Virus record (IMG/VR): IMGVR_UViG_3300027156_000002
DNA: 64,000 nucleotides
Strand: one strand, 5' to 3'
Origin: a virus
Lineage: Duplodnaviria > Heunggongvirae > Uroviricota > Caudoviricetes
Part shown: positions 14,027 through 52,962 of the stretch, piece by piece
How positions within the stretch are numbered: position 1 is the stretch's first letter
Layout of the letters: each line of letters begins with the position of its first letter
The notes under the pieces: model-generated
Database searches by the model: none
What the model was told of the DNA's origin: nothing
The model's input: the letters and a program-made list of their open reading frames with translations, nothing else
Program-made: the position numbers and the translations under genes

Positions 14027-14175
14027 TATTCTTCATCGTCTAGATCCTCTTCTTCGTAGATGTCAGCAGAACAAACTGGGCAATATACCACATCTTCTGT
14101 TGAATGGTCATCTCCTTTGAGAACGATCTTTCCTCGTGCTCCACATGATTCACATTCAAAATATTTAGTCGACAT
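14027..14175 (-). CDS. small zinc-ribbon protein (49 aa; CxxC...CxxC), not in ORF track
   Basis: Hand-translated MSTKYFECESCGARGKIVLKGDDHSTEDVVYCPVCSADIYEEEDLDDEE. Exact ends are within 3 nt. Confidence 0.35.
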
Positions 14176-21686: not shown

Positions 21687-21859
21687 TAATCTGATGAATC
21701 TCTGCTTCAGTCTGCATCATTGTGTTGCGTAACTGCGTAAGAAAATCCATCTTTTCTTTGTGCGCTGCTCTCAGTGTTTCAAGTTCGCTTTTAATATTCT
21801 CTAACATACTAACCCATTCTAAAAGGAGGGGAGGAATCTCCCCTCAACCAATTTATTTA

Positions 21860-22139: not shown

Positions 22140-24569
22140 TTATTTGAAATTAGGCAAGTGTACTGGATAGCCTGTCATTTCGACACCACTACCTTTTCTC
22201 TTAGCAATAGTTCCCTTCTGACGTGCGCCAGATGTAGAACCTGCTGGACGACCACGACCACGTTTCTCTGCAGCTGGTTTAGCTGGCTTGTCTTCATCGT
22301 CGTAACCTTTTTTGTCTGCTTCGGCTTCACCCTTATAATACTCAGTACCATAACCACGACCACTCACTTTACGTACTGGTAAGTCAGCCATTTTAACCTC
22401 ATCAAGAGATTCTACAAACTCTTTATATGTTTTCATGTTAGTTATTACCTCTCCGTTATCGTCAAATTGTTCCACTTCTTCTTTATGACTCTTCATACCC
22501 TTATTCTTCATATACCATGCAAGAGCAAAAGGATTATCAATTTCTTTATGCTTCTTCATTGCTTTAACAGTACCCTCAAATCCTGGAGGTGCTTTCTCGT
22601 CAACTTGTTCGACTTCTTCAGTTCTAGTTCTGCGACCTGCGAAATGATGAATACCTCTGTTCTTCAATTCAGAACGAGATGCTTCATATTCATATCGGTT
22701 TTTCACTTCACTAGGTCTTGTCTGACCAAGGGTTTTAACTTTTTTATCGAGAGTTGATGTTGCTTGTTTTTTGGCAATCTTATTGGTTGCCGTGTACAAC
22801 CCCGCATCTCTTTTATCACTAGTATCGCCAGACTTTAAATTCTTTCTAACATATGACTTTAAAGTTTTCTGATCTAATTCATCGATCTGTTCAACTTCTT
22901 CGCAGGACACCTTATTAGTTGGATGACCATTGATTGGTTTCTTAGTTGCTTTGTATGCTTTATTCTCAGGTGTTCCTTTGATATACTTCTTATCTGGAAC
23001 TGGAGCAACTGGAGCTTGTTCATCAACAACGTCTTCTTTGATTTTACTCTTTGCAGCAATAGCTTGTTTAGCAAGTTCACGTGCACGACTCATTGGTGAT
23101 TGAGTAGTGCCATCTGAGTTTTTAACAGGTTTAGTCTTTGTATATGGACCATCAAATGGAACACTATTCTTAGAAGAACCACCACCAATCTCGTCACCTT
23201 TACGACGATAAGCAGATGCTGGCTTTTGGTAGTAACCTTCTTCCATTTCAACTTCTTCTTTGTAGATAGTTCCAATATGTTTTGCTTTAATCTTTTGTAG
23301 AGAGTTGCGACCACTAGCGTTCATAGTGTGGTTAACATCAAAGCCACCACTATGAGCATAAATCTCAATACCATCAAGATTGTCACGATGGGTTTTAACT
23401 TTTTCTTTAGCATACTTCACAGCATCTTCTTTAGTTTTGAATGGTGCTGCTTCCACCACTTGTTCAACTGACTCATCAACATAAACTGCACGAGTTCTTT
23501 CTCCAGGATGATACGCTTTAGTGCGTTTACCAGTAATACTCTTTCCGTGATCGTCAGCTTCTTTAGAAGTTTTGAAACCTTTTTTATGCGCAGTCATATT
23601 ACCATAAACATCCATTGAAGATGAATGATATGTACCGTGAACTGTATTCTTTTTGACCTTAGCATGATTCCAAGTTTGACTAGCTTCTTCTATTTCAACT
23701 TCTTCGTTGGTTTCTTTCTTACCTGTCAAGAAGTTCTTAAAGTTTTTCAAATCTGATTTGATAGATGGTTTCTTACCCATATCTTTTAAATAACTCTTAT
23801 CGGCAATGTCAGTGTTCTTTGCTGGAACTGATTCATCAAAGTGTTTGTAATCAACAGTAGTTTTCTTACTGCCTGATGTTCTGTGAGAAACAAAATGAAC
23901 TTTGTCATCTTCACGTGTTACATGAACTTGATTACCAGTTTCATCTTTATACATAGCCTTCGAATGTTCACCACTTGGTCGTAAACCCTTAACAATCTTT
24001 TGGTGTTCTGGATGTAGAGGATAAGAAATATCTTTGCCGTGATGAACAGTCATCATCTTACCCCAAGAATAATCTTTCTTGCTTACTGTGGCTTCTTCTA
24101 ACTCAACTTCTTCTTTTAATTTCGCTGAGATTTTATGAACTTTATATCCTTTGTCAGAGAAATGTTTTCTTGCAGCACGCTCTGCATGCTTTGGAGTTGC
24201 TGCCAATATAGATAGTGCTTTCTTTATAACTTCACGCTTCTCACCATCAGCAGGAGTTCCAGTATTATCAGAAACATGAGCAACTACAGTATGACGTCTA
24301 GAGTAATCATCTTCTTCGTCAATAGTTTCTTCAGAAACTAAAATATACTTGTTATTTGATGGGTTCAACTTAGGTTTTTGTCCAGGTGCTGCAGCAGCTT
24401 TCGCATCTTGATAAGTTGCAAACACTCTAGCTTCGATAATATCGTCAGCTACTTCTGTTTCTTCAGGAACACAGTTAGGAACTTTTCTTCCATTCTTATC
24501 CTTTAAACCAACTGCTTTATAGCCTTTCCAGCAAGCACTGGCTAAATCTGCAAATTTCTTTTTTGCCAT
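22140..24569 (-). CDS. large basic Lys-rich protein with six EEVE(x)EE repeats and C-terminal AT-hook (GRGRPAG)
   Basis: 809 aa. The repeats NEEVEIEEA, KEEVEMEEG, CEEVEQIDE, TEEVEQVDE, KEEVEQFDD and KEEVELEEA are read directly. RGRP is an AT-hook core. Confidence 0.55.
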   Translation of the reverse strand: MAKKKFADLASACWKGYKAVGLKDKNGRKVPNCVPEETEVADDIIEARVFATYQDAKAAAAPGQKPKLNPSNNKYILVSEETIDEEDDYSRRHTVVAHVSDNTGTPADGEKREVIKKALSILAATPKHAERAARKHFSDKGYKVHKISAKLKEEVELEEATVSKKDYSWGKMMTVHHGKDISYPLHPEHQKIVKGLRPSGEHSKAMYKDETGNQVHVTREDDKVHFVSHRTSGSKKTTVDYKHFDESVPAKNTDIADKSYLKDMGKKPSIKSDLKNFKNFLTGKKETNEEVEIEEASQTWNHAKVKKNTVHGTYHSSSMDVYGNMTAHKKGFKTSKEADDHGKSITGKRTKAYHPGERTRAVYVDESVEQVVEAAPFKTKEDAVKYAKEKVKTHRDNLDGIEIYAHSGGFDVNHTMNASGRNSLQKIKAKHIGTIYKEEVEMEEGYYQKPASAYRRKGDEIGGGSSKNSVPFDGPYTKTKPVKNSDGTTQSPMSRARELAKQAIAAKSKIKEDVVDEQAPVAPVPDKKYIKGTPENKAYKATKKPINGHPTNKVSCEEVEQIDELDQKTLKSYVRKNLKSGDTSDKRDAGLYTATNKIAKKQATSTLDKKVKTLGQTRPSEVKNRYEYEASRSELKNRGIHHFAGRRTRTEEVEQVDEKAPPGFEGTVKAMKKHKEIDNPFALAWYMKNKGMKSHKEEVEQFDDNGEVITNMKTYKEFVESLDEVKMADLPVRKVSGRGYGTEYYKGEAEADKKGYDDEDKPAKPAAEKRGRGRPAGSTSGARQKGTIAKRKGSGVEMTGYPVHLPNFK

Positions 24570-24572
24570 TTA

Positions 24573-25019
24573 TTATTCTCCAATTTTCTTTAAGCTGGAA
24601 CGTATCATCCAACCATGTTTCTTGTGAGCATCCAATCTTCCAGCAATAAAATCAGCAAAACCCTGCTCTTTGTCTTTCGATAATAGATCGAACAGTTTAT
24701 TTAGGCTCTCGATGGTTTTATTGTTGGCTTCTTGTAAATCTTGCAGCATTTCAGTTACATTACTAGCGTTATTATCATTATCGATAGTTGTAACTTTATA
24801 CATTTCTTCTATATTCTTTGGAGCATACTCATCAAGCGCACGCATCTCTTCTGCCATTGGATCAACTGCTCCATAAATTTCTTCATAAAGATTGCCAAAA
24901 AATTCATGATACTGTGGAAAGAACATCCCTTCCAAGTTCCAATGATAAGATTGTGCCTTAAAATACATTAAGAATGTATTTGCTAAGCAAATTTTCGCAG
25001 TAACTAAAGTTTCATTCAT
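24573..25019 (-). CDS. Dps/ferritin-like four-helix-bundle protein
   Basis: 148 aa. The pattern resembles Dps (YHWN...F..H.........E..D..AER). Confidence 0.5.
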   Translation of the reverse strand: MNETLVTAKICLANTFLMYFKAQSYHWNLEGMFFPQYHEFFGNLYEEIYGAVDPMAEEMRALDEYAPKNIEEMYKVTTIDNDNNASNVTEMLQDLQEANNKTIESLNKLFDLLSKDKEQGFADFIAGRLDAHKKHGWMIRSSLKKIGE

Positions 25020-25020
25020 A

Positions 25021-25518
25021 TTAACAATTCCATTTTCTTAATGCCAATGCTTTACGAGTTGGCTCGCCATTTGGCTTCTTCATTGGTCCTTCTACGCCAG
25101 ACATTCTGGCACAGAAAGACTTGCGACGATTGGCAGCTTTGCTACCAGCTTTTAATTTTGATGGTGGTGTTGTTACAGGTGCTTTAAGATTGCCACCCTC
25201 TGTTCTGTTATAATGATCTCGACCCTTTTGTGTCAAGCCACCAGTTGAAGATTTAAATCCTTTTGCATCAACAGCTGCTTCTTTAACAGTTAAAGATTTT
25301 TCATGGTGTTCATCTGCCTTTTCAGCATGCTTGTCTGCTGATGCCGAACGACCCTTCGACTCATGCCACTCGGACATAGCATCATGATGATCCGCCATGT
25401 GTGCATGAAATGACTTCATATCACCTTTAGATTCAGCGTCATTGGCTTTTGATAAATGCTCTTCTGCCTCATCATGTTTGGCATTATCTTCTGTAAGGTA
25501 ATCTTTAAAACGCAACAT
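25021..25518 (-). CDS. His-rich acidic internal-head-protein candidate with capsid-targeting-sequence-like N-terminus (MLRFKDYLTE)
   Basis: Start re-assigned to ATG 25516-25518, overlapping the upstream stop by 11 nt. The N-terminus matches the paralog family and the T4 capsid-targeting sequence MKTYQEFIAE, and ends in a L-T-E gp21-type cleavage site. His-rich (HAHMADHHDAMSEWHE, KHAEKADEHHEK). Confidence 0.5.
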   Translation of the reverse strand: MLRFKDYLTEDNAKHDEAEEHLSKANDAESKGDMKSFHAHMADHHDAMSEWHESKGRSASADKHAEKADEHHEKSLTVKEAAVDAKGFKSSTGGLTQKGRDHYNRTEGGNLKAPVTTPPSKLKAGSKAANRRKSFCARMSGVEGPMKKPNGEPTRKALALRKWNC

Positions 25519-27385
25519 TTCCAGATCCTTTAGTATATTTTGTATGTGATAATCTTGCTTTCTCAACAGCACGAATACGTGGAACAAGTTTCATTGCTAC
25601 ACGACCGATAACTTGTTTGCGTCTTTGAATAACTCTTTCTACACGCTCTTTCTCTCCAACTGAAAGTTTGTTATAGTCACGACCACGGAGTAGACGTTTC
25701 TTCATTAACTTAATTGCAAGACGACGTGCACGTTTGTTTGTAGTCTTAGTGGTGGCACGAGTTCTTAATGCGATGGATGCTTTACGTTCACGCTTAGCCT
25801 TAGATTTTGCAAAACGAACTCTTGCACGCATACGTTCTGTTCTTGAAAGAACTTCCAGAATTGCTTGCTCTTGCATTGTGCAAGCACATTCTTCATCGTC
25901 ATATTCTTCGCCAGTATCTGGATCGATAATACCAAACTCATCATCTTCATACTCATCGATGAATTCATCATCTGGTGTAGTATTAATAATGTGATCGATT
26001 TCTTCATCAGTAAGATCTAATTCTTTTTCTAACACATCTCTAGTGTGTTCACATCCTTCTTCGCCATGCTTTACGTTGTGTACTGGACAAATACCAGTAT
26101 CTTCCCATTCTTCATCATGTGGTTCATCGCCAGCATGATTAACTTTGCTCACATCAACTGGAGCTACTTCACCCAATTGTTGTTTAATTTTTTGTTTGCG
26201 TAAAGTTTCAGATGCTCCTGGTTCAACTAAACTATGTCCAGGTTTGCAGTGATTCTCTTTTACATCTTTCTTCTGTTCTTTTTCTTTTTTCTCACGTTCC
26301 TGTCTTTCTTGTTTCGCCATGCGAGACATTCTCTTGATGAAAGAAGGTTTATTATAATATGGAGTTGCTTCATCCAAAGAAGTTTCTTCTTGAGTAAGTT
26401 TCTGTGGAATTAAATTTGTGTCATATTGAATACCAACTTGGTTAGCCAGTTGTAACATCTTATTAACAATGTTCAATGCTTCTGGATTCAAAGTCTTGGA
26501 TTTGATTCTGCGTAGTGCAGTATTAACAAGCAACTCAGCGTTTGCAGTTGCCTCAACTTTATCCACACCAAGCATAGTTGCGATTACTCGAGCAACTTTA
26601 ATCTTATCGTTGGTTTTTAAAGTCTTATCTGTTAAGTCTTCGTTCATTTCTTTTTCTTCCGTTGGTATTACGTCTTGTATCCATTTAGAAACTAATTTGC
26701 CACTAGCTTCTTTAAGTAGTAAATGGTTTGAGCCACGTTTAACTACTGCTAATTTTTCTCCACTACATTCAACGATATCTCCGACATTAAAAATTTCACC
26801 ACGGAAATATTGTTCACGTACAGTATCTTTGACCAAATTAAGCTGCTCTTTAATTGGTTCTAAACCCATCGTAATACGGACATCGTTCATCAAACGACGA
26901 CCATCTAACTCACGAACAGAACTTGGCAACTTTTTCTTAAACTCTTCAAAAATTCCTTTAGTAGCAAAAGATTTCATCTTTGAAGAATTTACATCTGGGT
27001 CTTTATCTAAAGTAGAAATAATCTGAATGGAACTTGATTCTTTAACAATTTTTTTCAAGCTGGCTGATTGTTCGCTGCCGACAACCAATACAACATGTTT
27101 ATACTTCTGCGACAAATCTTTAATCGTTTCCGATAAAGATGTGATACTTTTAAAAGAAGTATTTGGGAACATTAAATTTAGATAATGTTCTTTCTTATCT
27201 TCTTGGATAATACTGTTCTTAGATGGGGATGTATAGATTACGTGGTCAGAATTTTTTTGTTCTGCCAGTTTTTTGACTGTCTTGACTAGTAGTTCGTGAC
27301 CGATTGTAGGAGGGTTAAACTCGCTAACTGCACAAACAATAGTACTGGACGGTAGTTCTTTGATTAGTTGTCTGTAATCTTTCAT
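25505..27385 (-). CDS. capsid-targeting-sequence-bearing protein with N-terminal HxGH nucleotidyltransferase-like domain and charged C-terminal region
   Basis: 626 aa. N-terminus MKDYRQLIKE followed by LPS. VCAVSEFNPPTIGHELL is a (H/T)xGH Rossmann nucleotidyltransferase motif. The C-terminus is Arg/Lys-rich. Confidence 0.55.
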   Translation of the reverse strand: MKDYRQLIKELPSSTIVCAVSEFNPPTIGHELLVKTVKKLAEQKNSDHVIYTSPSKNSIIQEDKKEHYLNLMFPNTSFKSITSLSETIKDLSQKYKHVVLVVGSEQSASLKKIVKESSSIQIISTLDKDPDVNSSKMKSFATKGIFEEFKKKLPSSVRELDGRRLMNDVRITMGLEPIKEQLNLVKDTVREQYFRGEIFNVGDIVECSGEKLAVVKRGSNHLLLKEASGKLVSKWIQDVIPTEEKEMNEDLTDKTLKTNDKIKVARVIATMLGVDKVEATANAELLVNTALRRIKSKTLNPEALNIVNKMLQLANQVGIQYDTNLIPQKLTQEETSLDEATPYYNKPSFIKRMSRMAKQERQEREKKEKEQKKDVKENHCKPGHSLVEPGASETLRKQKIKQQLGEVAPVDVSKVNHAGDEPHDEEWEDTGICPVHNVKHGEEGCEHTRDVLEKELDLTDEEIDHIINTTPDDEFIDEYEDDEFGIIDPDTGEEYDDEECACTMQEQAILEVLSRTERMRARVRFAKSKAKRERKASIALRTRATTKTTNKRARRLAIKLMKKRLLRGRDYNKLSVGEKERVERVIQRRKQVIGRVAMKLVPRIRAVEKARLSHTKYTKGSGNVAF

Positions 27386-27428
27386 TTAATCCATCTATAA
27401 AGTAATTTCTATTCATTTATTTAGGCAA

Positions 27429-27659
27429 TTATGCCACGCTAATTAACGCTTTTGCTGCTGCAACGATCCAACGACAGGCTACCTCGTCTGTGGCTAACTC
27501 CTGTTGGGCACGAATTTCAGCGATTTCATTGACCAAATACTCATATTCTTCTTTGGATAGCTGTCCCTGTTCATAATTTTCACGAATAACCAATAACTCG
27601 TTCGCCAATGCTGCTGCTGGACCACCCATTCCTGCTGCTTCTCTTAATTGTTCTAGCAT
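27429..27659 (-). CDS. hypothetical small protein
   Basis: 76 aa. Confidence 0.35.
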   Translation of the reverse strand: MLEQLREAAGMGGPAAALANELLVIRENYEQGQLSKEEYEYLVNEIAEIRAQQELATDEVACRWIVAAAKALISVA

Positions 27660-27856
27660 CTTGGACCCCTTAAAAATTCAACAATACCTTTGGCAGTTTT
27701 CATATGTCGTGCTTTATATGCACGATATTCATTTACCTCATCCATAATTGGATTCTTAATTTCTTCTAATCCTATAGATTCATATCCTGGATGATAAGGT
27801 GCTTCTGCTACTAATCTATCTTCAGTTGTAAATGTAGTCATTATCTTCCTTTCCAA
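27653..27856 (-). CDS. hypothetical small protein
   Basis: 67 aa. Confidence 0.35.
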   Translation of the reverse strand: MERKIMTTFTTEDRLVAEAPYHPGYESIGLEEIKNPIMDEVNEYRAYKARHMKTAKGIVEFLRGPRC

Positions 27857-28188
27857 GCATCTACTATTACATCGATTCTAACTTTATTTGTTTTAACAAC
27901 AGATTCGCAGAATACTTTGTTCTTGGATTCTCCTGCTTTCTTGATAGCTTCTTGCAATTTTCCAATAGCTTCTGCTTGTGGGTCAGATCTTAAAACAGCA
28001 TAAACTTTTAATCTCTCGATATACTCGTCTGCGTTTTGGAACATTAACTGATTACCACATTCTAATTTATCAACTGCTATTTTGGTATCAACTAAACGAC
28101 CAAACATTTCTGGGTCGTGTGGTCTTGGTAGGATAACAGAACATGCAGATAAAGAAACTACGGCAAGAATCAGTATTAACTTTTTCAT
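27841..28188 (-). CDS. lipoprotein
   Basis: 115 aa. Signal peptide plus lipobox LSAC. Confidence 0.45.
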   Translation of the reverse strand: MKKLILILAVVSLSACSVILPRPHDPEMFGRLVDTKIAVDKLECGNQLMFQNADEYIERLKVYAVLRSDPQAEAIGKLQEAIKKAGESKNKVFCESVVKTNKVRIDVIVDAWKGR

Positions 28189-29231
28189 ACAGCTTTACCT
28201 GCACTCTTTAATGAACTTAATGGATCAGATTGAGAGTCGAACTTATGGGCTTGAGAAGCAAACTTCTTACCATTGTGATAGAAGTGAACAGAGCCACCAC
28301 TGGATTTAACTGTAATATTCTTATGGTCTTTAAGGATATGTTCGTGGTCTTCGCTTGGCTTACTTGTATGGTGTTGAACACCCTTAGCAGTTTGATATGT
28401 TGTATGCTTAATAAAACTGTGCCCCTTTTCTTCTGCAGGAGTCTTATGTGCATGTAGAACTTCACGAATATGTTTAACTACATGGTCGTGGTTATTGTTG
28501 TCTAAGTGGTGCTGCAACTCAGCAGCATGATCGTGAGCAACTTTATGTAAAAGTTCTTTGTTGCGTTTCTTAATATCATCATGCAACTTAGGATCTGCTT
28601 TTGCAATTTCTTTACGCTGGTCTTTATTCTTACCTTTTAATTTAGGATGAGCAGCAAGTATTGCGTCTTGATGATCTTTATAATGCTGTCTGGCTTTTGA
28701 ACCACCAGATTCCATACCAAGACTTGAAGACGGAATGTTTTTACTGGACTTATCGCTGACTTTTAAACTTACGCCATGATGATGTTCTTTACCTGTCTTT
28801 GGATGCTTGGTAGTTACATAAACGTCAGAAGAATCTTCTTTCTGTGTTGCTTTGTGACCAGTTACCTTTTCTGTATCTCCAGGTTTTGAAGTCCAATGCA
28901 CTGCTGAAATCTTATGCCCTTTGTGAGTAGAATCGATATGTGCCTTAATATGATTGGCAGCACTCTCTGCATTTTTAGCGATCTTATCATAATCTTTAGG
29001 GTGAATTTGTTTCTTTAATCTCTCGTGTGCTTGCTCAGGTGTTTCATCGTTTTCATTCTTGTGTTTCTCTAGATGCTTACCACCATTTAAATGTTTGCCG
29101 ACTAATAGTTCGTGCAACACACCTTTAGTGTTATTGGAAACACCACCCTCTTTGGAAGCATCATCAGCTGCTTCGATAAGCAATTCTTCGTAGTATTGTT
29201 CTTCTGCTAAGAACGATTTAAAATTTTTCAT
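28185..29231 (-). CDS. His/Lys-rich capsid-targeting-sequence-bearing internal-head-protein candidate
   Basis: 348 aa. N-terminus MKNFKSFLAE followed by EQ. Extreme His and Lys content (HHHG, HDHAAELQHHLDNNNHDH). Confidence 0.5.
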   Translation of the reverse strand: MKNFKSFLAEEQYYEELLIEAADDASKEGGVSNNTKGVLHELLVGKHLNGGKHLEKHKNENDETPEQAHERLKKQIHPKDYDKIAKNAESAANHIKAHIDSTHKGHKISAVHWTSKPGDTEKVTGHKATQKEDSSDVYVTTKHPKTGKEHHHGVSLKVSDKSSKNIPSSSLGMESGGSKARQHYKDHQDAILAAHPKLKGKNKDQRKEIAKADPKLHDDIKKRNKELLHKVAHDHAAELQHHLDNNNHDHVVKHIREVLHAHKTPAEEKGHSFIKHTTYQTAKGVQHHTSKPSEDHEHILKDHKNITVKSSGGSVHFYHNGKKFASQAHKFDSQSDPLSSLKSAGKAV

Positions 29232-29845
29232 TACTTTACACCCATATGTTTACGTAAGTCGTGATACAATTCTGTTTTATGTTCTGGTTTCATCTGTGAC
29301 GATAGATGAGATTCAAACTTTTTCTGTTCACCAGCTGCAGCGTGACCACGAAGTTTAGTTCCAGAAATACCTTCAGTTCCTTTTGCATTTGGATCACGTT
29401 TACCTGCATTGTGGAACTTTATACTCTTGAAATTGTAATGTCCATGTGGACCTTCTTTTCCATTATACTTTTTAATCAATTCATGCATTGGTTTACGATC
29501 ATCGCCACCAGCAAAGTGTAAATGAGTAACACCTTTTTTGTGCAACTCAGCAGCATGATGAAGAACAGTAGGATGTTCTTTATCAGCTACCTTAACATTG
29601 GTTCCAGGAAATGCTCTCTCTGCATGTTTCTTTTTAACATCAGGTGGTAATGGATTAGATCCGTCTTTAGTTGCATGCGAACCTGATAATACCAATGTAT
29701 GTTCTGCATTATGTTTCTTGGCAGTATCATGCATATGGGTTACGAGTTTCTCATGACCAGCAGTTGGAGGATTCATTCGACCAAAAGCAAGAACATGATG
29801 AACGTCTTTTTCTGATTCTACAATATAAGATTTAAATGTCTTCAT
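29231..29845 (-). CDS. capsid-targeting-sequence-bearing HxGH nucleotidyltransferase-like protein (paralog of 25505..27385 N-domain)
   Basis: 204 aa. N-terminus MKTFKSYIVE followed by SE. AFGRMNPPTAGHEKLV motif. His-rich. Confidence 0.5.
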   Translation of the reverse strand: MKTFKSYIVESEKDVHHVLAFGRMNPPTAGHEKLVTHMHDTAKKHNAEHTLVLSGSHATKDGSNPLPPDVKKKHAERAFPGTNVKVADKEHPTVLHHAAELHKKGVTHLHFAGGDDRKPMHELIKKYNGKEGPHGHYNFKSIKFHNAGKRDPNAKGTEGISGTKLRGHAAAGEQKKFESHLSSQMKPEHKTELYHDLRKHMGVK

Positions 29846-31035
29846 TTTCTTGGCTTTAATAAGTTGGCTTTACTGAATTCTGCACGATTAACAATTTTAG
29901 ATGGTTCTTGTTTACCTTTGTGCGTATAATTTATAACATATCCCTCAGGATCTGTTTTCTTATCTCCAATATGATGCTCAAGACCGCCAGTATGCTGGTT
30001 TAAATTCTTAACTAAAAGGTTTTTACCTTGCTGTAAATGCTGATGCATTTTAAATAGATTCTCATAATGCTCTTTATTTTTCTCAACATGCGCAGCGTGA
30101 CCAGAACCAAGATTACGCTGAGCAGTTTGTCCCTTCTCAGACTTTAGTTTAGACGCTTTCTTTTCATAAACATCCTGAATATGTTTAATGAATCCTTTTG
30201 CGTTTGGTTTTGTATCTTTGCGAACTGTTTGATTGATGTAAGTTCCCAAATGTCCAGCATCACCTTTGTGTTCTGGATGGATCGCACCATACATCTTATC
30301 GCCGTGTTTATCATGAATATCTTTTGCAGCATTCATGTGGCTTTGGAATCTTTTCTGATCTGCTTGAGTATATTTAACTTTGCTAGTATCATGCTCGGCA
30401 CCAGCAAGATGCACATCTTTGTGTTGACCAAAACTTTTCATATCAGGATGAGGAGTTGCTTTCATCGAAGCAAAATCTTTACCCTCATATTTTTGGTGAA
30501 CAACTAACCCAAATTTAGATTGGGCTGTTTTCTTGGCTTCATCGCCATGCGCAGTATACTTAATTGTATTTGGTGTATAAGAAGCAGTTCCCTTCTTCTC
30601 ATCATATTTAACATCACCCTCAGAGTGCATAACGTCACCCTGATATACACCTTGCTTAGGTGCAACCTTTGGTAGATGTTTTAGAGCATGCTTTAATTTT
30701 TCTGCGAGACCTGGAGCATGACCATGGTTCTTGTCAATGTCCTTAGCAGTATAGTTGATTTTTGGGTTTTTATTGAACGCTGACTTGGAAGCAACAAAGA
30801 ATTTTCCAGTTTCTGGATGCTTTCCAAAAACCAATGATGGCGATCCGTCATATTTCATGGTCAGATCGCTGGATTGTTTCCCAGCTTTAATGTGTTCATG
30901 TCCATGGTTTAGTGCACCAAGAGCATGTTCGAACCCTGAAGAACCATGGAATAGAGGGCGATCCTCTACATGATGGATGTGCTTCAGTTTCTCTTCTTCG
31001 GTTTCTTCTTTAAGGAATGTTTGGAACGACTTCAT
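29842..31035 (-). CDS. capsid-targeting-sequence-bearing protein with KxDG nucleotidyltransferase (ligase/capping-type) motif
   Basis: Start re-assigned to the 2nd ATG (MKSFQTFLKE followed by ETEE), which aligns residue-by-residue with T4 MKTYQEFIAE. TMKYDGSPSLVF resembles ligase motif I. Confidence 0.5.
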   Translation of the reverse strand: MKSFQTFLKEETEEEKLKHIHHVEDRPLFHGSSGFEHALGALNHGHEHIKAGKQSSDLTMKYDGSPSLVFGKHPETGKFFVASKSAFNKNPKINYTAKDIDKNHGHAPGLAEKLKHALKHLPKVAPKQGVYQGDVMHSEGDVKYDEKKGTASYTPNTIKYTAHGDEAKKTAQSKFGLVVHQKYEGKDFASMKATPHPDMKSFGQHKDVHLAGAEHDTSKVKYTQADQKRFQSHMNAAKDIHDKHGDKMYGAIHPEHKGDAGHLGTYINQTVRKDTKPNAKGFIKHIQDVYEKKASKLKSEKGQTAQRNLGSGHAAHVEKNKEHYENLFKMHQHLQQGKNLLVKNLNQHTGGLEHHIGDKKTDPEGYVINYTHKGKQEPSKIVNRAEFSKANLLKPRK

Positions 31036-31049
31036 TTTACCCATCTATA

Positions 31050-31120
31050 CAGTTATTATACCCTACTTTTACAATAAAGTAAAGCATTATTTTAGTAACC
31101 CTACGTTCTGAAGGGTTATT
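31050..31120 (-). promoter_or_regulatory. PeSL-like cassette 3: promoter (-35 rc 31078-31083 TTTACT, -10 rc 31055-31060 TATAAT) plus stem-loop 31098-31118
   Basis: Read directly. Sits immediately upstream of the capsid-targeting-sequence gene cluster. Confidence 0.65.
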
Positions 31121-31152
31121 TTAATCCATTGAAAACAATGACTTACAGAGGT

Positions 31153-31160
31153 ATTTATAA
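31153..31160 (-). promoter_or_regulatory. T4-type late promoter core TATAAATA (minus strand)
   Basis: Plus-strand TATTTATA at 31153-31160 is the only exact occurrence found in the window. It lies upstream of PeSL-3 and the internal-protein block. Confidence 0.4.
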
Positions 31161-31164
31161 AAGT

Positions 31165-31983
31165 CTATGAAGCGAATGCTTTAAGTAGAGACTGATTGTC
31201 AGTTAAGCTGTAAGCTGTTCTATTAATAGTGACGTTATTTTGGGATGTAATGGGTGCTAGGTTATAGAGAGATTTTCTTAGGTTTGAAAATTCTAAAGTC
31301 ATAACGAACTGGTAATCGCCACCACCCTTTGGCTGGCATCTAGTTCTGATTCTAGCTGATGTGCAGTTTGAGAAATCTTCGATCTTCTTGGTTAGCTTGG
31401 CATTCAATTTTAACGGATCGAATTTATTCATTAAATAGAACCCATGAGTACCTACATTGATGTAGTAGGTTTTCTTCTTATTGTAGTAGTCACAGATAGC
31501 CTTAGCTGGGACTGTTATGTGGACCTCGTTCTCACCCTTATAACTTTGTATATCAATTTCATACGCTTTGCGTTTGTCTTTAATACCACCAGTAAGTATT
31601 TTTCTACCAGCTTGGTCATTCTGTAGAATAGGAACTTTACTTCTCCACTTCTCACCAGCAGTACCCGATACATTCATTTCTTGGAGAAGGTTGTATTGAG
31701 TTGCGATATCTCGCATCATGATTTTCTCAGGATCGCCTTTAAGGTCTTCAGCGAATGCCCACTTACCGTTGTAGTATTTTAATACTAGAGATCCTGCTGC
31801 AGTTGGGGATATCTTTAACTCACATCCTGTTGATGTTGATATACTTTTAGTGACGATAGAAAGATCTGGTTTATCGTGCGATGCGCCAGCTGGATCACCT
31901 ACAGTGATTTTGTATTCTTTCAATACGTTATGTGCGTTTCTCTCGTAATCGAAACCTTTTTGTGCCATGGGAACCCCGTACAA
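31165..31983 (-). CDS. hypothetical protein (possible PD-(D/E)xK-like fold)
   Basis: 272 aa. Weak D...EIDIQSYK motif only. Confidence 0.4.
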   Translation of the reverse strand: MYGVPMAQKGFDYERNAHNVLKEYKITVGDPAGASHDKPDLSIVTKSISTSTGCELKISPTAAGSLVLKYYNGKWAFAEDLKGDPEKIMMRDIATQYNLLQEMNVSGTAGEKWRSKVPILQNDQAGRKILTGGIKDKRKAYEIDIQSYKGENEVHITVPAKAICDYYNKKKTYYINVGTHGFYLMNKFDPLKLNAKLTKKIEDFSNCTSARIRTRCQPKGGGDYQFVMTLEFSNLRKSLYNLAPITSQNNVTINRTAYSLTDNQSLLKAFAS

Positions 31984-34184: not shown

Positions 34185-35486
34185 TTACGCAAAAAATTCA
34201 TCAAGTGATCCAGACTTCATTGATTCTGGATGATATTTAATTAGGATTTCATCTCCAAGTTTTTCACGACAATAGTCGTACCACTCGTCAGAAGTCCACA
34301 TACCTTCGGAAACACCATTCCAAAGTTTACGTTGCATCGGATGTTCAGGATTCTTGCGACGTTGTTCAACGAAGTCATAACGACAGTTCTCATATTCCCA
34401 AGAACCCAACTCAAGCATCTTCTCACGGAAGTAGCAAACCAAACTGATACGCTCAGAACCTTCTTCACAAACGATAGGAGTGTTGCCATGCATAACATCA
34501 TGGTTGTTAATCAATAGCAAGTCGCCTGGACGTGGATTAACAGCAACACGATACTCAGGTGCAATCAAATAACCACCACTGTAACGTCCATCATTTGACA
34601 AAGTTAGTAGATTTGAAAGACCACTATTTAAATCGCCAACGTCATAGTGAGCAGCAGTTCTGAATGTTTTATTCACAGTAACAGTTGTGAATGGAGTTCC
34701 AGGAACTAGGAAACGAGGATCAACTTGTCTCGCTGCTTTCATCTGTGCTTCATAACGCTGTGGTAGTAGATCCCTAAAACCATTTGACAATGTTTGTAGG
34801 AATGGGTAAGCAAGTGCAAACTTCTCAGGATTCTTGGCAGTGTAAGATGTTGCACGACCATAAGGAATGCGAGGATAACGATCGAACCAACCTGCGATGC
34901 CAGAATAAACTGAGTTAGCGTAAGTGGTTGCACAAATCAATTCATCAGCAACAAAGTTTGCTTCTTTAATTTGTTCTTGTCGTGGAAGTGTACGCACTTT
35001 CTCAACCCACTGATCGAAATTAAAATTGGTTGACTTAGTTCTTTCAATCGACCAAACATTATTGCGATTAGATGGAGTAGGTGGTTTACCCTTATAGCGT
35101 TTGATAATATCTTCTACAGGATCTCCTGCAAGACCAGAGTATGGGTCAAGGAAGTATTCAACCATCTCAGATTCATACTCAGTAACCCATTCACGATTAC
35201 CCAACTTCTCACCACGTGGACCTGCTGCTGCGCCACGATTCTGTGTTTCAGTTGCAGCTTCACGAAGACCTGCATACGCTTGGTCTTGTTGTTCTTTGGT
35301 GAAGAAGTTCTTACGGAACTTCAATACAATCCTGTCTTCATTGATAGGATCTTCACCATAAGGTGCTGGCATATAAACATCAGTATCTTCTTCGATAAGA
35401 TGGTCGTAATGATTCTCGTCAACGAATTGACCAATCAAATGTTTACAATCAATCTTTTTATCAGCGACAATAACTTTAACTGTCAT
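34185..35486 (-). CDS. Fe(II)/2-oxoglutarate dioxygenase (P4H/AlkB-type 2OG-FeII_Oxy C-terminal domain) with large N-terminal domain
   Basis: 433 aa. HYDVGD (HxD)...LTLSNDG..GGYL...PRPGDLLLINNHDVMHGNTP (distal His)...ERISLVCYF (RxS) read directly. Confidence 0.65.
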   Translation of the reverse strand: MTVKVIVADKKIDCKHLIGQFVDENHYDHLIEEDTDVYMPAPYGEDPINEDRIVLKFRKNFFTKEQQDQAYAGLREAATETQNRGAAAGPRGEKLGNREWVTEYESEMVEYFLDPYSGLAGDPVEDIIKRYKGKPPTPSNRNNVWSIERTKSTNFNFDQWVEKVRTLPRQEQIKEANFVADELICATTYANSVYSGIAGWFDRYPRIPYGRATSYTAKNPEKFALAYPFLQTLSNGFRDLLPQRYEAQMKAARQVDPRFLVPGTPFTTVTVNKTFRTAAHYDVGDLNSGLSNLLTLSNDGRYSGGYLIAPEYRVAVNPRPGDLLLINNHDVMHGNTPIVCEEGSERISLVCYFREKMLELGSWEYENCRYDFVEQRRKNPEHPMQRKLWNGVSEGMWTSDEWYDYCREKLGDEILIKYHPESMKSGSLDEFFA

Positions 35487-38297: not shown

Positions 38298-38894
38298 TTA
38301 TTTTGGGTTAGATTTGTGATGTGGCACATCGAATACAAAGGTTACACGAACTTCATTGCCAACATTTTCAGTTCCATGTTGCAATTTATTATTGAACCAC
38401 AACAAAGTTCCTGGCTCTACTATGTATTCCTCATCTCCAACCATATATTTGTATCTACCTGCGATGGAGAGATGGTAACGATCTCTGGTCTGATAATAAC
38501 TACCGATGTCTATATGTTTGCCGACAGAACCACCAACTGGCAATGACAAGAATCCACAACGTGAATGGTCGTGGAAGTTTCGTTTCATAAATCTAACAAT
38601 TTCTGTGTGTCTGTTATACGCAGGTGTTTTAATGCAATACTCAGTGTCACCAACATATTGCGTTTCATTCTCAACACCACCAATAACTAATTGCAAAACA
38701 CCTGCATTAATTTGTGGGAAGTCAAATTCTTTCTGGACTGTTGAAGCACCTTTCATCTGACCTTCAGAGTTCCAATCATCTTTGTAAAGTTTTAATTGAG
38801 CAAGAATCTTTGATACGTTGATTCCTGTTTTAATCACTTTAATATTATCCAAAGAAATCCTCCAATGATGACTTGGCTTCAACATTCCAACCAA
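38298..38894 (-). CDS. cupin-fold Asp/Asn beta-hydroxylase-like oxygenase
   Basis: 198 aa. HIDIG...H motifs of a double-stranded beta-helix. Confidence 0.4.
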   Translation of the reverse strand: MVGMLKPSHHWRISLDNIKVIKTGINVSKILAQLKLYKDDWNSEGQMKGASTVQKEFDFPQINAGVLQLVIGGVENETQYVGDTEYCIKTPAYNRHTEIVRFMKRNFHDHSRCGFLSLPVGGSVGKHIDIGSYYQTRDRYHLSIAGRYKYMVGDEEYIVEPGTLLWFNNKLQHGTENVGNEVRVTFVFDVPHHKSNPK

Positions 38895-41334
38895 TCGGCT
38901 GGATTACAGTTTGCATTGCATCGAGGAATGTCTTTTCAAACTGTGTTTCATAATCAATAAAGTCATGCAAACCAAACTCTTTCGGTAGATTTTGCGGGAA
39001 TGCGATAACGTCTTCCTGGAATGGATTTGGTTTTCTCACATATACAAACTTAACCTTCTCACCCTCTTTAATCAACTGATACTTCTTTTCAAGTCCAAGT
39101 TTCTTGACATAATGATTGTAAAGTAGTGAACCCCTTACATGGATAGGTGTTCCCTTGGTATAGATCGGAGAACCAGCATATGTTCTCAAACCATTTACGC
39201 CACGTGGGAAAGCAATATCCTCTACTGGCATTTGGTTGAATTCTTCACGGAACTTTTCGATATACGAGTGTAAGTCCGCTTGACTGCCCTTGAGAATAAC
39301 TTCGATCGAATCTTTAAGTTTGTCACGAATAACAGCAGGTGTACTTGACTTGACCATTTCAAGCCCCATAACTTTGAGTTTCGGTTTAGCATACTGCACT
39401 CCTTCAGAATTGTGTACGTTCAATATGTATCTTTTCTTGGCAGTCCAGATACCCTTATCGGCAAGAACCTCACGTTTCATAATCATCTTCTGAGAGTATG
39501 CGTTCATATACTCACCCAACTTTTGATACGTTTGGTCAATGAATGGTTGGAAGATCTCTTCGCAAACCTTATCCATATATTTAATTTTCTGGTCGTCAGT
39601 TTTACCTTCGCAAACTTTCTCGATCAGTTCTTCCAATGTTAGATAGATTGAATCTGTGTCAATGGCGATAACAAAGTCTTTACCTTCTGTCTTCATGACC
39701 TTGTTGAGATAACGATTAAACTCATTTGCCATCCAACGAATCGATAGTTGACCACTGGTAGTAATACCTTCTGCCATGCGAATATCAAAGTAACGGAAAT
39801 ACTGATTACCCATCGCACCATAAGCAGAGTTGAGAGCAATCTTCATTGCCATCTGCAGGTTGTTCAGTCGACTAATCTCTTTCAGTAGTTCTTTCTTGGA
39901 CTTGTCGTTCTGATATTCCTGTTCAACTTTCAGCATCTGCTTCTTGAACTTACTGCGGTCTGAATACATCTTCTCCATCAACTCAGGCATGAACCCTTTG
40001 ATATCTCTGCGGTAAGTCCAGCCATTGGCAGTCAACGCAAGATCCCTACGCTTACAATATTCAGTATCAACTTCTTGATTGAGCAGACGTTCAACGTTGC
40101 ATGAGATCTTCTCACCACTCAATGTTTCTGGTGAGATGTTATACTGCATAATCAAGTGAGGATATAGACTGTTCAAGTCAAAAGAAGCAACCCACTTATG
40201 CATACCCAGCAATGGGTCTTTAACGAAAGCACCTTCAAATGCTTCATTCTTACTGGAACCAACCTTGGTAGGAATGGCGATATGTTTCTTACGCAGGTGA
40301 TTATAGATGATGGCGTCCCACATTCTTACCTGAGAGAATACATCTTCATAGTTAATCTTTGCATTGTATGCCATGGTAAGACACAACTCAATCAGTCGCA
40401 TCTTATCTTCAAGTTTGTCAACCAACTCTACGTCGTGAATGTTATACTCAACGAAGTCTTGCCAGTAATTTGTATAGAAGTCTTTAAATGTATCTCCAGG
40501 GTTTTCTTTCTTGGCATCACCAAGTTCTTCACCTGCGATATAATCTAGACGATAGGACTCTTGCTTTTGATAAGTGAACTTCTTATACAAGTCAAGATAG
40601 TCAAGTTGGCTTACACCATGGATGTCAAATGAAATTTCTTCGTTACCTTTAACAAAGATCTTTCGTTCATTGATATATCCCCATGGTGAAAGTTTGGCTG
40701 CGATTGCTTCGCCAAGTTCACGCTGAATACGTTTAGTCAAATATGGTACGTCAAAGAATCCAATGTTCCATCCAGTTAGAACATCAGGATAATTCTGTTG
40801 CCAGAAAATCATAAACTCTTTGAGAAGTTGTTGCTCGTCTTTGCAACGGAAGTAAGTAACATCCTTGCGAGTATTTTCAAACTCACGTGTGCCGAAAGTG
40901 ATAATACTCTTAGATTGAAAGTCTTTGATTGTGATTAGTAAGATCTCTTCATTCGCCTGTTTGACATCAGGGAATCCATCTTCAACTGCAGTTTCAATGT
41001 CGATGGTGAACACTTTAATTTGTTCCATATCCCAACGAACATCACTCTCATAAGTGTCGCTGATATATTGGTGAACATAGTTAGTGTTTCCGTAGACGTT
41101 GAAACCCTGCACTTCTTTGTAACGATCAAAGAACTCACGTGTTTCTTTTACAGTTCCAGGTTTAACTTCATCGATAACTTGACCATCGAGTGTGCGCCAC
41201 TGGCTCTCTGCTTTATTTGATGTTACATAAAGTGTTGGGTAAAAGTCGATCTTACGTTGAAACGCTCTGCCGTTTTCATAACCTCTGACACACATTTTGT
41301 TACCAAAGGGAAATACGTGCGTATAAAAAATCAT
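38845..41334 (-). CDS. 43: family B DNA polymerase (T4 gp43)
   Basis: 829 aa. DTDS (IAIDTDSIY) and KIALNSAYGAMG motifs. The N-terminus YISDTY resembles T4 gp43. Confidence 0.9.
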   Translation of the reverse strand: MIFYTHVFPFGNKMCVRGYENGRAFQRKIDFYPTLYVTSNKAESQWRTLDGQVIDEVKPGTVKETREFFDRYKEVQGFNVYGNTNYVHQYISDTYESDVRWDMEQIKVFTIDIETAVEDGFPDVKQANEEILLITIKDFQSKSIITFGTREFENTRKDVTYFRCKDEQQLLKEFMIFWQQNYPDVLTGWNIGFFDVPYLTKRIQRELGEAIAAKLSPWGYINERKIFVKGNEEISFDIHGVSQLDYLDLYKKFTYQKQESYRLDYIAGEELGDAKKENPGDTFKDFYTNYWQDFVEYNIHDVELVDKLEDKMRLIELCLTMAYNAKINYEDVFSQVRMWDAIIYNHLRKKHIAIPTKVGSSKNEAFEGAFVKDPLLGMHKWVASFDLNSLYPHLIMQYNISPETLSGEKISCNVERLLNQEVDTEYCKRRDLALTANGWTYRRDIKGFMPELMEKMYSDRSKFKKQMLKVEQEYQNDKSKKELLKEISRLNNLQMAMKIALNSAYGAMGNQYFRYFDIRMAEGITTSGQLSIRWMANEFNRYLNKVMKTEGKDFVIAIDTDSIYLTLEELIEKVCEGKTDDQKIKYMDKVCEEIFQPFIDQTYQKLGEYMNAYSQKMIMKREVLADKGIWTAKKRYILNVHNSEGVQYAKPKLKVMGLEMVKSSTPAVIRDKLKDSIEVILKGSQADLHSYIEKFREEFNQMPVEDIAFPRGVNGLRTYAGSPIYTKGTPIHVRGSLLYNHYVKKLGLEKKYQLIKEGEKVKFVYVRKPNPFQEDVIAFPQNLPKEFGLHDFIDYETQFEKTFLDAMQTVIQPIGWNVEAKSSLEDFFG

Positions 41335-52951: not shown

Positions 52952-52962
52952 AATAATTTCCT

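Follow-up and report, generated by a model that had tools for sequence, protein, structure and literature searches.

A block of five minus-strand genes (25021-31035), found in a 64-kb stretch of DNA (hereafter the window) from an uncultured T4-like phage, probably encodes cargo of the phage head, that is, tagged enzymes packaged in the capsid and injected with the DNA. We put the probability of this reading at roughly 0.7. Each of the five proteins starts with the T4 head-loading tag, and they are therefore probably packed in the virion and injected. Their packaging, cleavage, ejection, enzymatic activities and targets are predicted here from sequence. The cargo would constitute a nucleic-acid/nucleotide toolkit, comprising a putative ligase-fold enzyme, two HIGH-motif nucleotidyltransferases, a predicted endonuclease resembling monomeric restriction enzymes and a DUF6321 protein. 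The block and its downstream neighbours are arranged as follows, in the direction of transcription:

29842..31035, minus strand: p397, 397 aa, tag MKSFQTFLKE, followed by an acidic linker and DUF6267
29231..29845, minus strand: p204, 204 aa, tag MKTFKSYIVE, followed by a 7-aa linker and a HIGH-motif nucleotidyltransferase (cytidylyltransferase-like)
28185..29231, minus strand: p348, 348 aa, tag MKNFKSFLAE, followed by a predicted HinP1I/MspI-like PD-(D/E)XK endonuclease fold
27429..28188, minus strand: three untagged small ORFs of 115 aa (lipoprotein-like, 27841-28188), about 62-67 aa and 76 aa
25505..27385, minus strand: p626, 626 aa, tag MKDYRQLIKE; its nucleotidyltransferase domain is a paralogue of p204, and the protein also has an acidic stretch and a strongly basic C-terminal region
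25021..25518, minus strand: p165, 165 aa, tag MLRFKDYLTE, with a region rich in His, Asp and Glu and, at the C-terminus, DUF6321 (PF19846, E 1e-25)
24573..25019, minus strand: untagged Dps/ferritin-like gene (PF00210, E 8e-20), within the transcription unit of the tagged genes
22140..24569, minus strand: p809, basic and untagged, in which a linker of the form KEEVE-x-(L/I/M/V/F)-(E/D)-(E/D) occurs six times
21831..21845, minus strand: terminator-like hairpin and T-run downstream of p809, a consensus match only

A previous sequence-only reading described the five genes as consecutive and paralogous, and neither term stands: the three small ORFs, in which neither our strict nor our loose regular expression finds the tag, separate the 626-aa and 348-aa genes, and the tag is all that the five have in common, since they belong to four unrelated folds or families. 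The only detectable paralogues among them are p204 and p626 (22% identity, E 2e-9, blastp). The fusion of the signal to large, enzyme-like proteins (165-626 aa) does hold, as judged from their predicted families and folds. The lipoprotein-like protein starts with MKKLILILAVVSLSAC and has a weak Cor-like match. The block sits in a replication/nucleotide-metabolism module, adjoined by gp41, UvsX, gp43, NrdAB and ThyX; the gp43 is about 55% identical to cyanophage homologues, and the relationship of the phage to T4 is a distant one. The window does not extend to the genes for the prohead protease, the scaffold and gp23, so that the cognate head machinery is not seen, and a search with a cyanophage gp21 returned no contig in common with the related loci.

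The N-terminal tag

All five ORFs open with M-[K/L]-x-[F/Y]-[K/R/Q]-x-[F/Y/L]-[L/I]-x-E, and each of the N-termini originally quoted was found in the translation. In a six-frame translation of the whole window, the strict expression M[KL]x[FY][KRQ]x[FYL][ILV]xE matched only the five tag sites, and a looser N-terminal expression added a single match, at an internal Met (41555); the window's own amino-acid frequencies predict about 0.0006 strict and 0.04 loose matches per 100 N-termini. About 70 other long same-strand ORFs of the window lack the decapeptide. Pairwise identity between the 30-nt stretches that encode the tag is just 14-21/30, which rules out a DNA repeat.

We obtained the N-termini of the T4 internal proteins by translating NC_000866 directly: IPII and IPIII start with MKTYQEFIAE, and IPI with MKTFKEFTSTTTPVSTITE (beginning MKTFKEF). 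The five tags fit both, in agreement with the proposed match to the T4 capsid-targeting sequence (CTS). In T4, positions 4 and 7 of the CTS are summarised as controlling targeting, and 8 and 10 processing (Mullaney & Black 1996, via PMC9026906). Here, the conserved positions are 1, 4, 7, 8 and 10 (60-74 homologues per family), and the conservation of 8 and 10 also upholds the (L/I)-x-E prohead-protease site suggested at the tag end. Among 74 DUF6267 sequences with 60-70% identity, M1, F4 (73/74), F/Y7 (73/74), L/I8 (74/74) and E10 (74/74) are fixed, positions 2, 3, 5, 6 and 9 are variable (1.6-2.9 bits), as is the acidic linker that comes after the tag. The p348 family has the same conservation pattern.

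Across 83 related loci (906 kb) the loose motif occurred 219 times, 175 of them at ORF N-termini. Homologues of the tagged proteins or of p809 accounted for 160 of these, and other proteins for 15; the tag of these relatives also heads further unrelated small proteins. Homologous nucleotidyltransferases from jumbo phages that are not T4-like carry no tag, and start directly at the Rossmann strand. The tag region is disordered in the AF2 models of p397 (residues 1-15) and p348 (residues 1-19). All five tagged proteins are basic, with a pI of 8.8-9.7 for the mature enzymes, and gp23 of Kyanoviridae retains a T4-like L-T-E↓A site. Inside the untagged p809 lie two CTS-like peptides, LKNFKNFLTG at aa 274 and MKTYKEFVESLDE at aa 712; its KEEVE..(L/I)xE linker is seen again in neighbouring proteins at related loci, and its N-terminal CWKGY..VPNCV module is common to S-SZBM1_139, a protein detected in virions. 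It is possibly a polyprotein or a core-associated cargo.

Families and predicted folds

p397 matches PF19782 (DUF6267, E 2e-96), an uncharacterised family of which we found no mention in the literature searched. Its homologues align from the Met at 31035, not from an upstream MGK. From the AF2 model (pLDDT 89.9) and the residues invariant in homologues (K61-x-D63-G64, E364-G365, K380 and R384) we infer an RNA/DNA-ligase (covalent nucleotidyltransferase) fold, and predict an adenylyltransferase nearest to RNA ligases. It resembles the ATP-dependent RNA ligases (Naegleria NgrRnl, T. brucei REL1, T4 Rnl2/Rnl1, fungal Trl1) in the invariant KxDG of motif I, but identity to them is just 11-16% and a long helical insertion separates core strands. 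The DUF6267 homologues of marine cyanophages often lack the tag (Syn9 gp183, S-SZBM1_141, S-SM1 gp189), and thus packaging of this enzyme would be lineage-specific at best.

The p204 start overlaps the p397 stop (ATGA). The protein belongs to phrog_3041 “cytidyltransferase” (E 1e-48), its Pfam match (PF01467) being below threshold, and its family has invariant G22-R-M-N-P26, T28-x-G30-H31, G159, S161, K164 and R166. p626 matches phrog_3041 (E 8e-33) and phrog_395 (E 7e-26), and its homologues at related loci are still tagged (MKDYRQLIRE, MKNYRQLLKE). The ATG of p165 (25518) encodes a Met internal to a longer ORF that starts with TTG; an AAGGA Shine-Dalgarno sequence lies upstream of it, homologues begin there, and 25 tagged homologues were found at related loci.

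p348 had no match in Pfam, PHROG or NCBIfam. Its AF2 model (pLDDT 91.9) gave HinP1I (probability 0.99, E 1.4e-3) and MspI (probability 0.93) as best Foldseek matches in PDB, and the homologue alignment and the model place an invariant S135-D136-X18-S155-x-K157 on adjacent strands. A second site, L-x-E-A, is conserved at residues 18-21. We found 360 metagenomic homologues, and none among 50,697 phage records. HinP1I, MspI and HhaI are monomeric type II restriction endonucleases, and the SD...xK motif is comparable to the SD-X11-EAK of HhaI (PMC7026639). Unlike them, p348 is larger, has an extra helical domain and a Ser as middle catalytic residue, and is phage-encoded with a capsid tag, with no partner methyltransferase found in the window. 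An active endonuclease packed alongside the genome would require a mechanism of self-protection.

Promoters and transcript ends

Three features precede the first tagged gene:

31152..31159, minus strand: late promoter box TATAAATA, an exact T4-type match that lies 124 nt ahead of the gene
31097..31117, minus strand: stem-loop AACCCT-N9-AGGGTT (“PeSL” in the sequence-only reading), read from the sequence, just upstream of the early-type promoter
31055..31083, minus strand: sigma-70-type promoter-like site (TTTACT-N17-TATAAT, 10/12 matches), separated by 20 nt from the ATG at 31035

The late box is indeed the sole exact one in the window, against 4.5 expected in 64 kb. At 61 of 75 related loci, the 250 nt preceding the DUF6267 homologue contain an exact TATAAATA (background 0.025 per 250 nt); in 57 of the 61, its distance to the ATG is 50-56 nt. 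The sigma-70-type site amounts to no more than a consensus match, and across the region sites of this kind are not in excess over shuffled sequence; with both elements upstream, the sequence is consistent with the suggested early and late expression of the block. Shuffled sequence likewise contains terminator-like sites at least as often, and the hairpin at 21831..21845 is a possible end of the transcription unit.

Homologues in cyanophage virions

Relatives of p204 have been detected in virions. The T4-GC190 “cytidyltransferase” of S-SM1 was identified with 25 peptides (PMC3037559 Table S8), and this protein (gp190), a tagged homologue of the nucleotidyltransferase, has the N-terminus MKKFSAFLNE. 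The homologue S-SZBM1_140, found in a virion proteome (PMC9146016), starts with MRFRQFIIE, and similar proteins were detected in virions of S-CREM2, S-SCSM1 and S-CBWM1. The published accounts of T4-GC190-type proteins that we consulted propose no packaging signal, and view them as metabolic genes or possible contaminants.

These detections could be carry-over if the five proteins were ordinary intracellular enzymes with the auxiliary metabolic or nucleotide-metabolism roles that annotations usually give them, the tag serving in folding, oligomerisation, turnover or localisation. The authors of the cyanophage proteomes warn of abundant enzymes that may accompany virions through purification, the T4-GC190-type protein was not detected in the Syn9 and S-PM2 virion proteomes, and the location of the block in a replication/nucleotide-metabolism module with an early-type promoter would suit such a role. 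We nevertheless consider it unlikely, given that the motif reproduces the experimentally defined T4 CTS residue for residue, protease site included, that it heads four unrelated folds as well as unrelated small proteins of relatives, that homologues are untagged in phages that lack T4-type head assembly, that the late promoter upstream is conserved, and that homologues were found in five independent virion preparations.

Proposed route of the cargo

Under the packaging model, the detachable decapeptide before the folded domain would be the counterpart of the T4 internal-protein CTS. The block would be transcribed late in infection from the TATAAATA promoter, with some earlier expression possibly contributed by the sigma-70-type promoter. 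The aromatics at positions 4 and 7 would dock each protein on the prohead's scaffolding core during assembly, and a gp21-type prohead protease would cut after Glu10 of (L/I)-x-E, with a second cut in p348 probably after Glu20. The mature basic enzymes would remain beside the DNA in the head and pass into the host along with it, and could therefore act ahead of any phage gene expression.

The tag may instead direct the proteins to the prohead core as assembly or scaffold-associated components, which are degraded or retained and never delivered. Conserved folded catalytic domains with invariant KxDG, TxGH and SD..SxK are unexpected in a disposable scaffold, however, and nucleotidyltransferase peptides are present in mature virions. 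The T4 core proteins gp22, gp67 and gp68 are cut to fragments that exit the head (PMC5694885), and the many internal (L/I)xE linkers of p809 and its neighbours suggest extensive cleavage; passage through the tail tube would also require unfolding of folded 40-70 kDa enzymes, but T4 Alt (68 kDa) and CTS fusions to beta-galactosidase and GFP are packaged and delivered. We regard this alternative as slightly less probable than the previous one. A shared RNA or DNA element (for example a site for translation initiation or for a translational repressor, or the border of a mobile gene cassette), which tightly packed genes with overlapping stop and start codons (ATGA) and an upstream promoter/stem-loop cassette of the mobile kind known in T4-type phages (PMC2839356) might suggest, is very improbable, since the 30-nt stretches differ at synonymous sites, which largely refutes a reading at that level, conservation among homologues tracks amino-acid positions 1, 4, 7, 8 and 10 with F/Y and L/I exchanges, and the other long ORFs on the strand do not share the start.

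Comparison with known packaged-protein systems

The closest parallel to the proposed cargo is provided by T4 IPI, IPII and IPIII (the internal proteins and the CTS are reviewed in PMC9026906 and PMC3012670, Mullaney & Black 1996), whose N-terminal ten residues follow MK-x-[F/Y]-x-x-[F/Y]-[I/L]-x-E, with aromatics at 4 and 7 and the gp21 site at 8-10. Both systems have basic mature proteins, a variable cargo set with the tag alone in common, and a late promoter. The T4 proteins, in contrast, are small (about 8-21 kDa) and non-enzymatic, whereas the present putative cargoes have 165-626 aa and enzyme folds, and their genes form one block, headed by a late promoter, inside the replication module.

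The claim that no such enzyme set had been described was overstated. T4 Alt, a packaged 68-kDa enzyme, is a large ADP-ribosyltransferase built into the prohead core and trimmed by gp21, about 40 copies of which are packaged, injected and act ahead of phage gene expression (PMC5694885); it differs in having a 6-residue N-terminal propeptide (ITE-6) in place of the internal-protein decapeptide, in its additional C-terminal propeptide and in its enzyme class. Giant phages package a virion RNA polymerase (PMC5694885), and those of the phiKZ/SPN3US type have many head-internal proteins with propeptides that a gp21-related protease cleaves off after Glu (PMC5694885), but they are of an unrelated lineage, the motif is (S/A/G)-x-E, and the propeptides often exceed 100 residues and lack the T4 decapeptide.

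Finally, virion proteomes of cyanophages have listed a “cytidylyltransferase” since 2010 (PMC3037559 Table S8). This T4-GC190 protein is homologous to p204 and p626 (33-44% identity), bears the same tag (MKKFSAFLNE in S-SM1, MKKFSAFLSE in Syn9), and its gene shares the neighbourhood of p204, beside a DUF6267 gene and downstream of gp41/MazG. In contrast to the present block, the cyanophages with this gene usually have a DUF6267 neighbour that carries no tag, and they lack the HinP1I-like nuclease. This tagged-enzyme variation on the T4 internal-protein system is probably widespread in aquatic T4-like phages.

A shared N-terminal tag in five minus-strand proteins

When the 64 kb was translated in all six frames, M[KL]x[FY][KRQ]x[FYL][ILV]xE matched at five N-termini and nowhere else. 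All of them lie in a single series of minus-strand genes (31035-25021; hereafter the block), as a sequence-only reading had claimed. We name the proteins by their length.

Tagged proteins of the block
Start 31035, minus strand: p397, 397 aa, MKSFQTFLKE
Start 29845, minus strand: p204, 204 aa, MKTFKSYIVE
Start 29231, minus strand: p348, 348 aa, MKNFKSFLAE
Start 27385, minus strand: p626, 626 aa, MKDYRQLIKE
Start 25518 (ORF 25021-25518), minus strand: p165, 165 aa, MLRFKDYLTE

With the window's own amino-acid composition, 0.0006 matches to this pattern would be expected per 100 N-termini, and a much looser N-terminal pattern added nothing relevant across the window. The targeting positions are occupied in all five proteins, by F/Y at position 4 and F/Y/L at position 7, and positions 8-10 always read (L/I)-x-E (LTE, IKE, LAE, IVE and LKE). 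All five proteins are basic (pI 8.8-9.7). The DNA stretches encoding the tags are only 14-21/30 identical and differ at synonymous sites. The similarity is thus kept at the protein level, and we rejected the idea that the tag is a repeat in the DNA or a signal for translation.

Direct translation of the T4 genome (NC_000866) gave MKTYQEFIAE as the start of the internal proteins IPII and IPIII, and MKTFKEFTSTTTPVSTITE as that of IPI. The window tags align with the N-termini of IPI-IPIII without a gap, again as claimed. In T4, amber suppression assigned targeting to positions 4 and 7 and processing to positions 8 and 10 (Mullaney & Black 1996, as summarised in PMC9026906).

The same reading had described the five genes as consecutive and paralogous, and in this it was mistaken. 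Three small untagged ORFs (27429-28188) break the series:

27429-27856, minus strand: two tiny untagged ORFs
27841-28188, minus strand: 115-aa lipoprotein-like ORF (MKKLILILAVVSLSAC...), weak match to Cor (superinfection exclusion)

Kinship is limited to p204 and the N-terminal domain of p626 (22% identity, E 2e-9), and we rejected a common origin of all five by duplication.

Conservation of the tag and its spread over a changing set of proteins

The conservation of the tag was analyzed in 74 homologues of p397, members of the DUF6267 family that are 60-70% identical overall.

Tag conservation in the DUF6267 family
Position 1: M, 70/74
Position 4: F, 73/74
Position 7: F/Y, 73/74
Position 8: L/I, 74/74
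Position 10: E, 74/74
Positions 2, 3, 5, 6 and 9: variable, 1.6-2.9 bits

Behind the tag, residues 11-16 of this family make up an acidic linker of variable sequence, and L17 is the first residue of the conserved domain. In the p348 family the tag is conserved in the same way, and a second L-x-E-A is kept at residues 18-21, an arrangement like that of the two-step propeptides of T4 IPI and IPII. AlphaFold models have unstructured residues 1-15 (p397) and 1-19 (p348), followed by confident domains.

DUF6267 homologues are numerous (more than 4,000 at E <= 1e-5). We collected 83 related loci (906 kb), comprising 80 from IMG/VR together with Syn9, Melnitz and DLP_6. A loose form of the motif occurred 219 times in this set, in 175 cases N-terminally in ORFs of 80 aa or more. 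Homologues of the five block proteins or of p809, an untagged protein encoded downstream, accounted for 160 of these 175 ORFs; the other 15 encode unrelated, often small, proteins. In six long loci that we mapped, each phage had 2-5 motif-matching genes in the region, with a varying cargo set, and near-variants of the tag missed by the regular expression were also present.

Tagged N-termini in cultured related phages
Melnitz (Methylophilales): MQGFKTFLSE, xINFSKYITE and MKKFSEIIEA
DLP_6 (Stenotrophomonas): MMKFTQFLAE
Syn9 gp184 "cytidyltransferase" (L003, 5902-7050): MKKFSAFLSE
S-SM1 gp190 "cytidyltransferase" (L087, 4255-5418): MKKFSAFLNE
S-SZBM1_140 "cytidyltransferase" (L086, 8390-9478): MRFRQFIIE

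In Syn9, S-SM1 and S-SZBM1 the DUF6267 homologue adjoining the tagged "cytidyltransferase" has an untagged start (MCDSTL..., MAKNTHLEHLED...); the tag is therefore gained or lost on individual cargoes. The nucleotidyltransferase homologue of non-T4-like jumbo phages (G17, K64-1 and Callisto) also lacks it, and there the protein starts with the first Rossmann strand. Judged by these comparisons, the tag is a portable address.

Predicted identities of the tagged proteins

The fold predicted for p397 is the adenylyltransferase domain found in ATP-dependent RNA and DNA ligases. K61, D63 and G64 of its candidate motif I (KxDG) are invariant in 74 sequences, and the invariant E364-G365 and K380/R384 could be motifs IV and V. 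Our literature search found nothing on DUF6267.

PHROG "cytidyltransferase" families matched both p204 (E 1e-48) and p626 (E 8e-33). An N-terminal (H/T)xGH-type motif is present in the two proteins (FGRMNPPTAGH in p204, FNPPTIGH in p626), and a C-terminal ISxT-type motif (GTEGISGTKLR) in p204 only. Residues G22, R23, N25, P26, T28, G30, H31, G159, S161, K164 and R166 are invariant in the p204 family. The Pfam family PF01467 scored 13.9 and 15.9 bits for p204 and p626, below its curated cut-off of 21. Despite this, the strong PHROG matches make both proteins likely members of the HIGH-motif nucleotidylyltransferase superfamily (PF01467, cytidylyltransferase-like).

Searches of PDB sequences with p397, with p204 and with family profiles for p204 and p348 gave nothing meaningful: the p204-family profile matched PPAT only at E 0.3-0.8, and ankyrin-design matches of p204 were discarded as compositional (His/Ala-rich). 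No block protein had a match in NCBIfam.

For p348 we found no Pfam, PHROG or NCBIfam family. Its structural model (pLDDT 91.9) retrieved HinP1I in Foldseek with probability 0.99 (E 1.4e-3, TM 0.32/0.42) and again with 0.95, and MspI with 0.93; the scores are moderate. As modelled, p348 shares the fold of the HinP1I/MspI/HhaI-like monomeric PD-(D/E)XK endonucleases. The catalytic motif of HinP1I is SD-X18-QxK. In the p348 family S135-D136-X18-S155-x-K157 is invariant, with an unusual Ser at the middle position, and in the model a strand follows D136 and the next strand, adjacent to it, ends at K157. This arrangement is comparable to the SD-X11-EAK catalytic motif of HhaI (PMC7026639). The 360 homologues of p348 are metagenomic, and none was found in deposited phage genomes.

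The C-terminus of p165 is a DUF6321 domain. T7-like Pelagibacter, Synechococcus and Prochlorococcus podoviruses have this domain as well (hits H96-H98, H113 and H123), and one cyanomyovirus match (S-P4) is annotated as "structural protein".

Genome setting and expression signals

The window comes from an uncultured T4-like myovirus and holds its module for replication and nucleotide metabolism; the head genes lie outside the window. Besides a gp43 polymerase it encodes gp41, UvsX, gp44, gp45, gp46/47-like proteins, RNase H, NrdA/B, ThyX, DNA ligase, a CobS-like protein and Hsp20. Since the phage is uncultured, its identity rests on protein similarity; no DNA nearly identical to the block was found among 50,697 phage records. 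A tRNA scan of the whole window was negative.

Genes of the window around the block
38845-41334: gp43 polymerase, 55-57% identical to marine cyanomyovirus gp43
34185-35486, minus strand: Tet/JBP-family 2OG-Fe(II) dioxygenase, 433 aa (PF12851, E 3e-24), 3 kb upstream of the block
31165-31983, minus strand: 272-aa ORF adjoining the late promoter upstream; sole match phrog_26930 (E 1e-13), no Pfam family
24573-25019, minus strand: untagged Dps/ferritin-like gene (PF00210, E 8e-20), between p165 and p809
22140-24569, minus strand: p809, 809-aa basic protein, downstream of the block
21845-21831, minus strand: terminator-like hairpin downstream of p809

Host-like accessory genes are also found on the minus strand, encoding a fatty-acid desaturase (14165-14890), a class IV aminotransferase (3811-4629) and an SPFH/Band-7 protein (52160-52975). 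The block of one relative (L007) likewise contains a Dps/ferritin-like homologue. At the position of the 272-aa ORF, Melnitz has a tagged 361-aa protein (MQGFKTFLSE), and blastp detected no similarity between the two.

The dioxygenase gene suggests that the phage DNA has hydroxylated or hypermodified bases. Within the window we recognised no C5-methyltransferase. Relatives have large glycosyltransferase-like clusters at the equivalent position.

The block genes overlap, stop into start. The late box TATAAATA occurs in the window once, at 31152-31159 on the minus strand. In 75 related loci the sequence reached far enough upstream for a comparison. An exact TATAAATA precedes the DUF6267 gene in 61 of the 75, and in 57 of these 61 it lies 50-56 nt from the ATG, a nearly fixed spacing (L004-L083). 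The background is 0.025 boxes per 250 nt. That strand has 89 boxes in 873 kb, and these 61 sites are the majority of them. The distance is larger, about 124 nt, in the window and in its two closest relatives, because a stem-loop and a TTTACT-N17-TATAAT promoter-like cassette, of early-promoter type, are inserted between box and start. By sequence, the block has a predicted late promoter, as expression at prohead assembly would call for. A regional scan for sigma-70-like promoters was set aside as uninformative (33 sites against 33.6 in shuffles); the one such site cited here, directly upstream of the first block gene, is a consensus match alone.

A modular protein downstream of the block

The p809 protein contains six KEEVE-x-(L/I/M/V/F)-(E/D)-(E/D) linkers. 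They delimit seven segments that are 46-152 aa long (pI 6.9-9.8; all but one basic). Two internal peptides resemble the tag. One is LKNFKNFLTG at aa 274; the other, MKTYKEFVESLDE at aa 712, has GGAGAGG before it and an AT-hook, KRGRGRP, after it. The protein has the look of a polyprotein that the prohead protease would cut; alternatively, an internal start may yield a 98-aa tagged DNA-binding protein. The KEEVE linker also occurs in neighbouring proteins of related loci, and p809 shares a CWKGY module with S-SZBM1_139.

Virion evidence and a packaging proposal

Published proteomes include tagged homologues of these enzymes. S-SM1 virions yielded 25 peptides of a "cytidyltransferase", T4-GC190 (Sullivan et al. 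2010, PMC3037559 Table S8), which is the protein starting with MKKFSAFLNE. S-SZBM1_140 and its neighbour S-SZBM1_139 were found in virions (PMC9146016), and similar enzymes were detected in S-CREM2, S-SCSM1 and S-CBWM1 (PMC10665884, PMC9602691). The authors of the latter reports note the "frequent detection" of such enzymes, caution about contamination and give no mechanism (PMC10665884, PMC9602691). In the literature searched we found no link between the capsid-targeting sequence (CTS) and these cyanophage proteins, and in the CTS review PMC9026906 cyanophages appear in the reference list only. The published proteomes provided no N-terminal peptides for the tagged homologues of p204 and p626.

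The relative S-SZBM1 encodes gp21 (the prohead protease), gp22 (the scaffolding core) and gp23 with an LTE|A site, and gp23 of Kyanoviridae keeps L-T-E|A. A search with cyanophage gp21 for a prohead protease of the same clade gave no contig shared with the related loci among its best 80 loci.

We consider it probable (roughly 0.7) that the block proteins are capsid-targeted cargo. The block would be transcribed late, and the tag would dock its products on the prohead core. A gp21-type protease would then cleave after Glu10, and the mature basic enzymes would be kept with the DNA and co-injected with it. We infer the steps after docking from T4; for ejection, the models are its internal proteins, Alt (a packaged T4 enzyme) and CTS fusions.

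A broader proposal, which we regard as unlikely, is that in a large clade of aquatic T4-like phages the CTS serves as a general loading address for a ready-made enzyme kit injected with the genome, whose nuclease would cut unmodified host DNA and spare modified phage DNA. Such a kit may comprise a restriction-enzyme-like endonuclease, a ligase-fold enzyme, which may repair RNA or nicks, and cytidylyl/adenylyl-transferases. Since the Tet/JBP dioxygenase suggests modified phage DNA, a packaged endonuclease could, speculatively, spare the genome. The only "packaged nuclease" we know of so far is artificial, a T4 CTS fused to staphylococcal nuclease; under this proposal p348 would be a natural one.

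Implications and comparison with known systems

To our knowledge, T-even coliphages, where the cargo is small and non-enzymatic, are the only phages in which the CTS system has been characterised. If the block proteins are packaged, the reach of the system would come to include a very large group of uncultured T4-like phages from aquatic habitats, and the recurrent cytidylyltransferase/NMNAT-like enzymes of purified cyanophage virions would be explained. A gene usually called an auxiliary metabolic gene would become an injected effector. Two of the candidate activities, those of the ligase-fold enzyme and the restriction-like nuclease, would come into play ahead of any phage transcription, which bears on counter-defence, host takeover and the engineering of protein-delivering phages. 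The tagged N-terminus is a simple rule that could predict packaged proteins from metagenomes.

The earlier suggestion that a packaged set with enzyme-like domains is unprecedented was overstated, since there are precedents in Alt, in the virion RNA polymerases of giant phages and in the cyanophage proteomes. In its sequence-level features the block matches the T4 internal-protein/Alt system, and it would work in a like manner. It differs from that system in the class of its cargo (ligase, nucleotidyltransferase and nuclease folds), and also in genomic organisation and phylogenetic reach.
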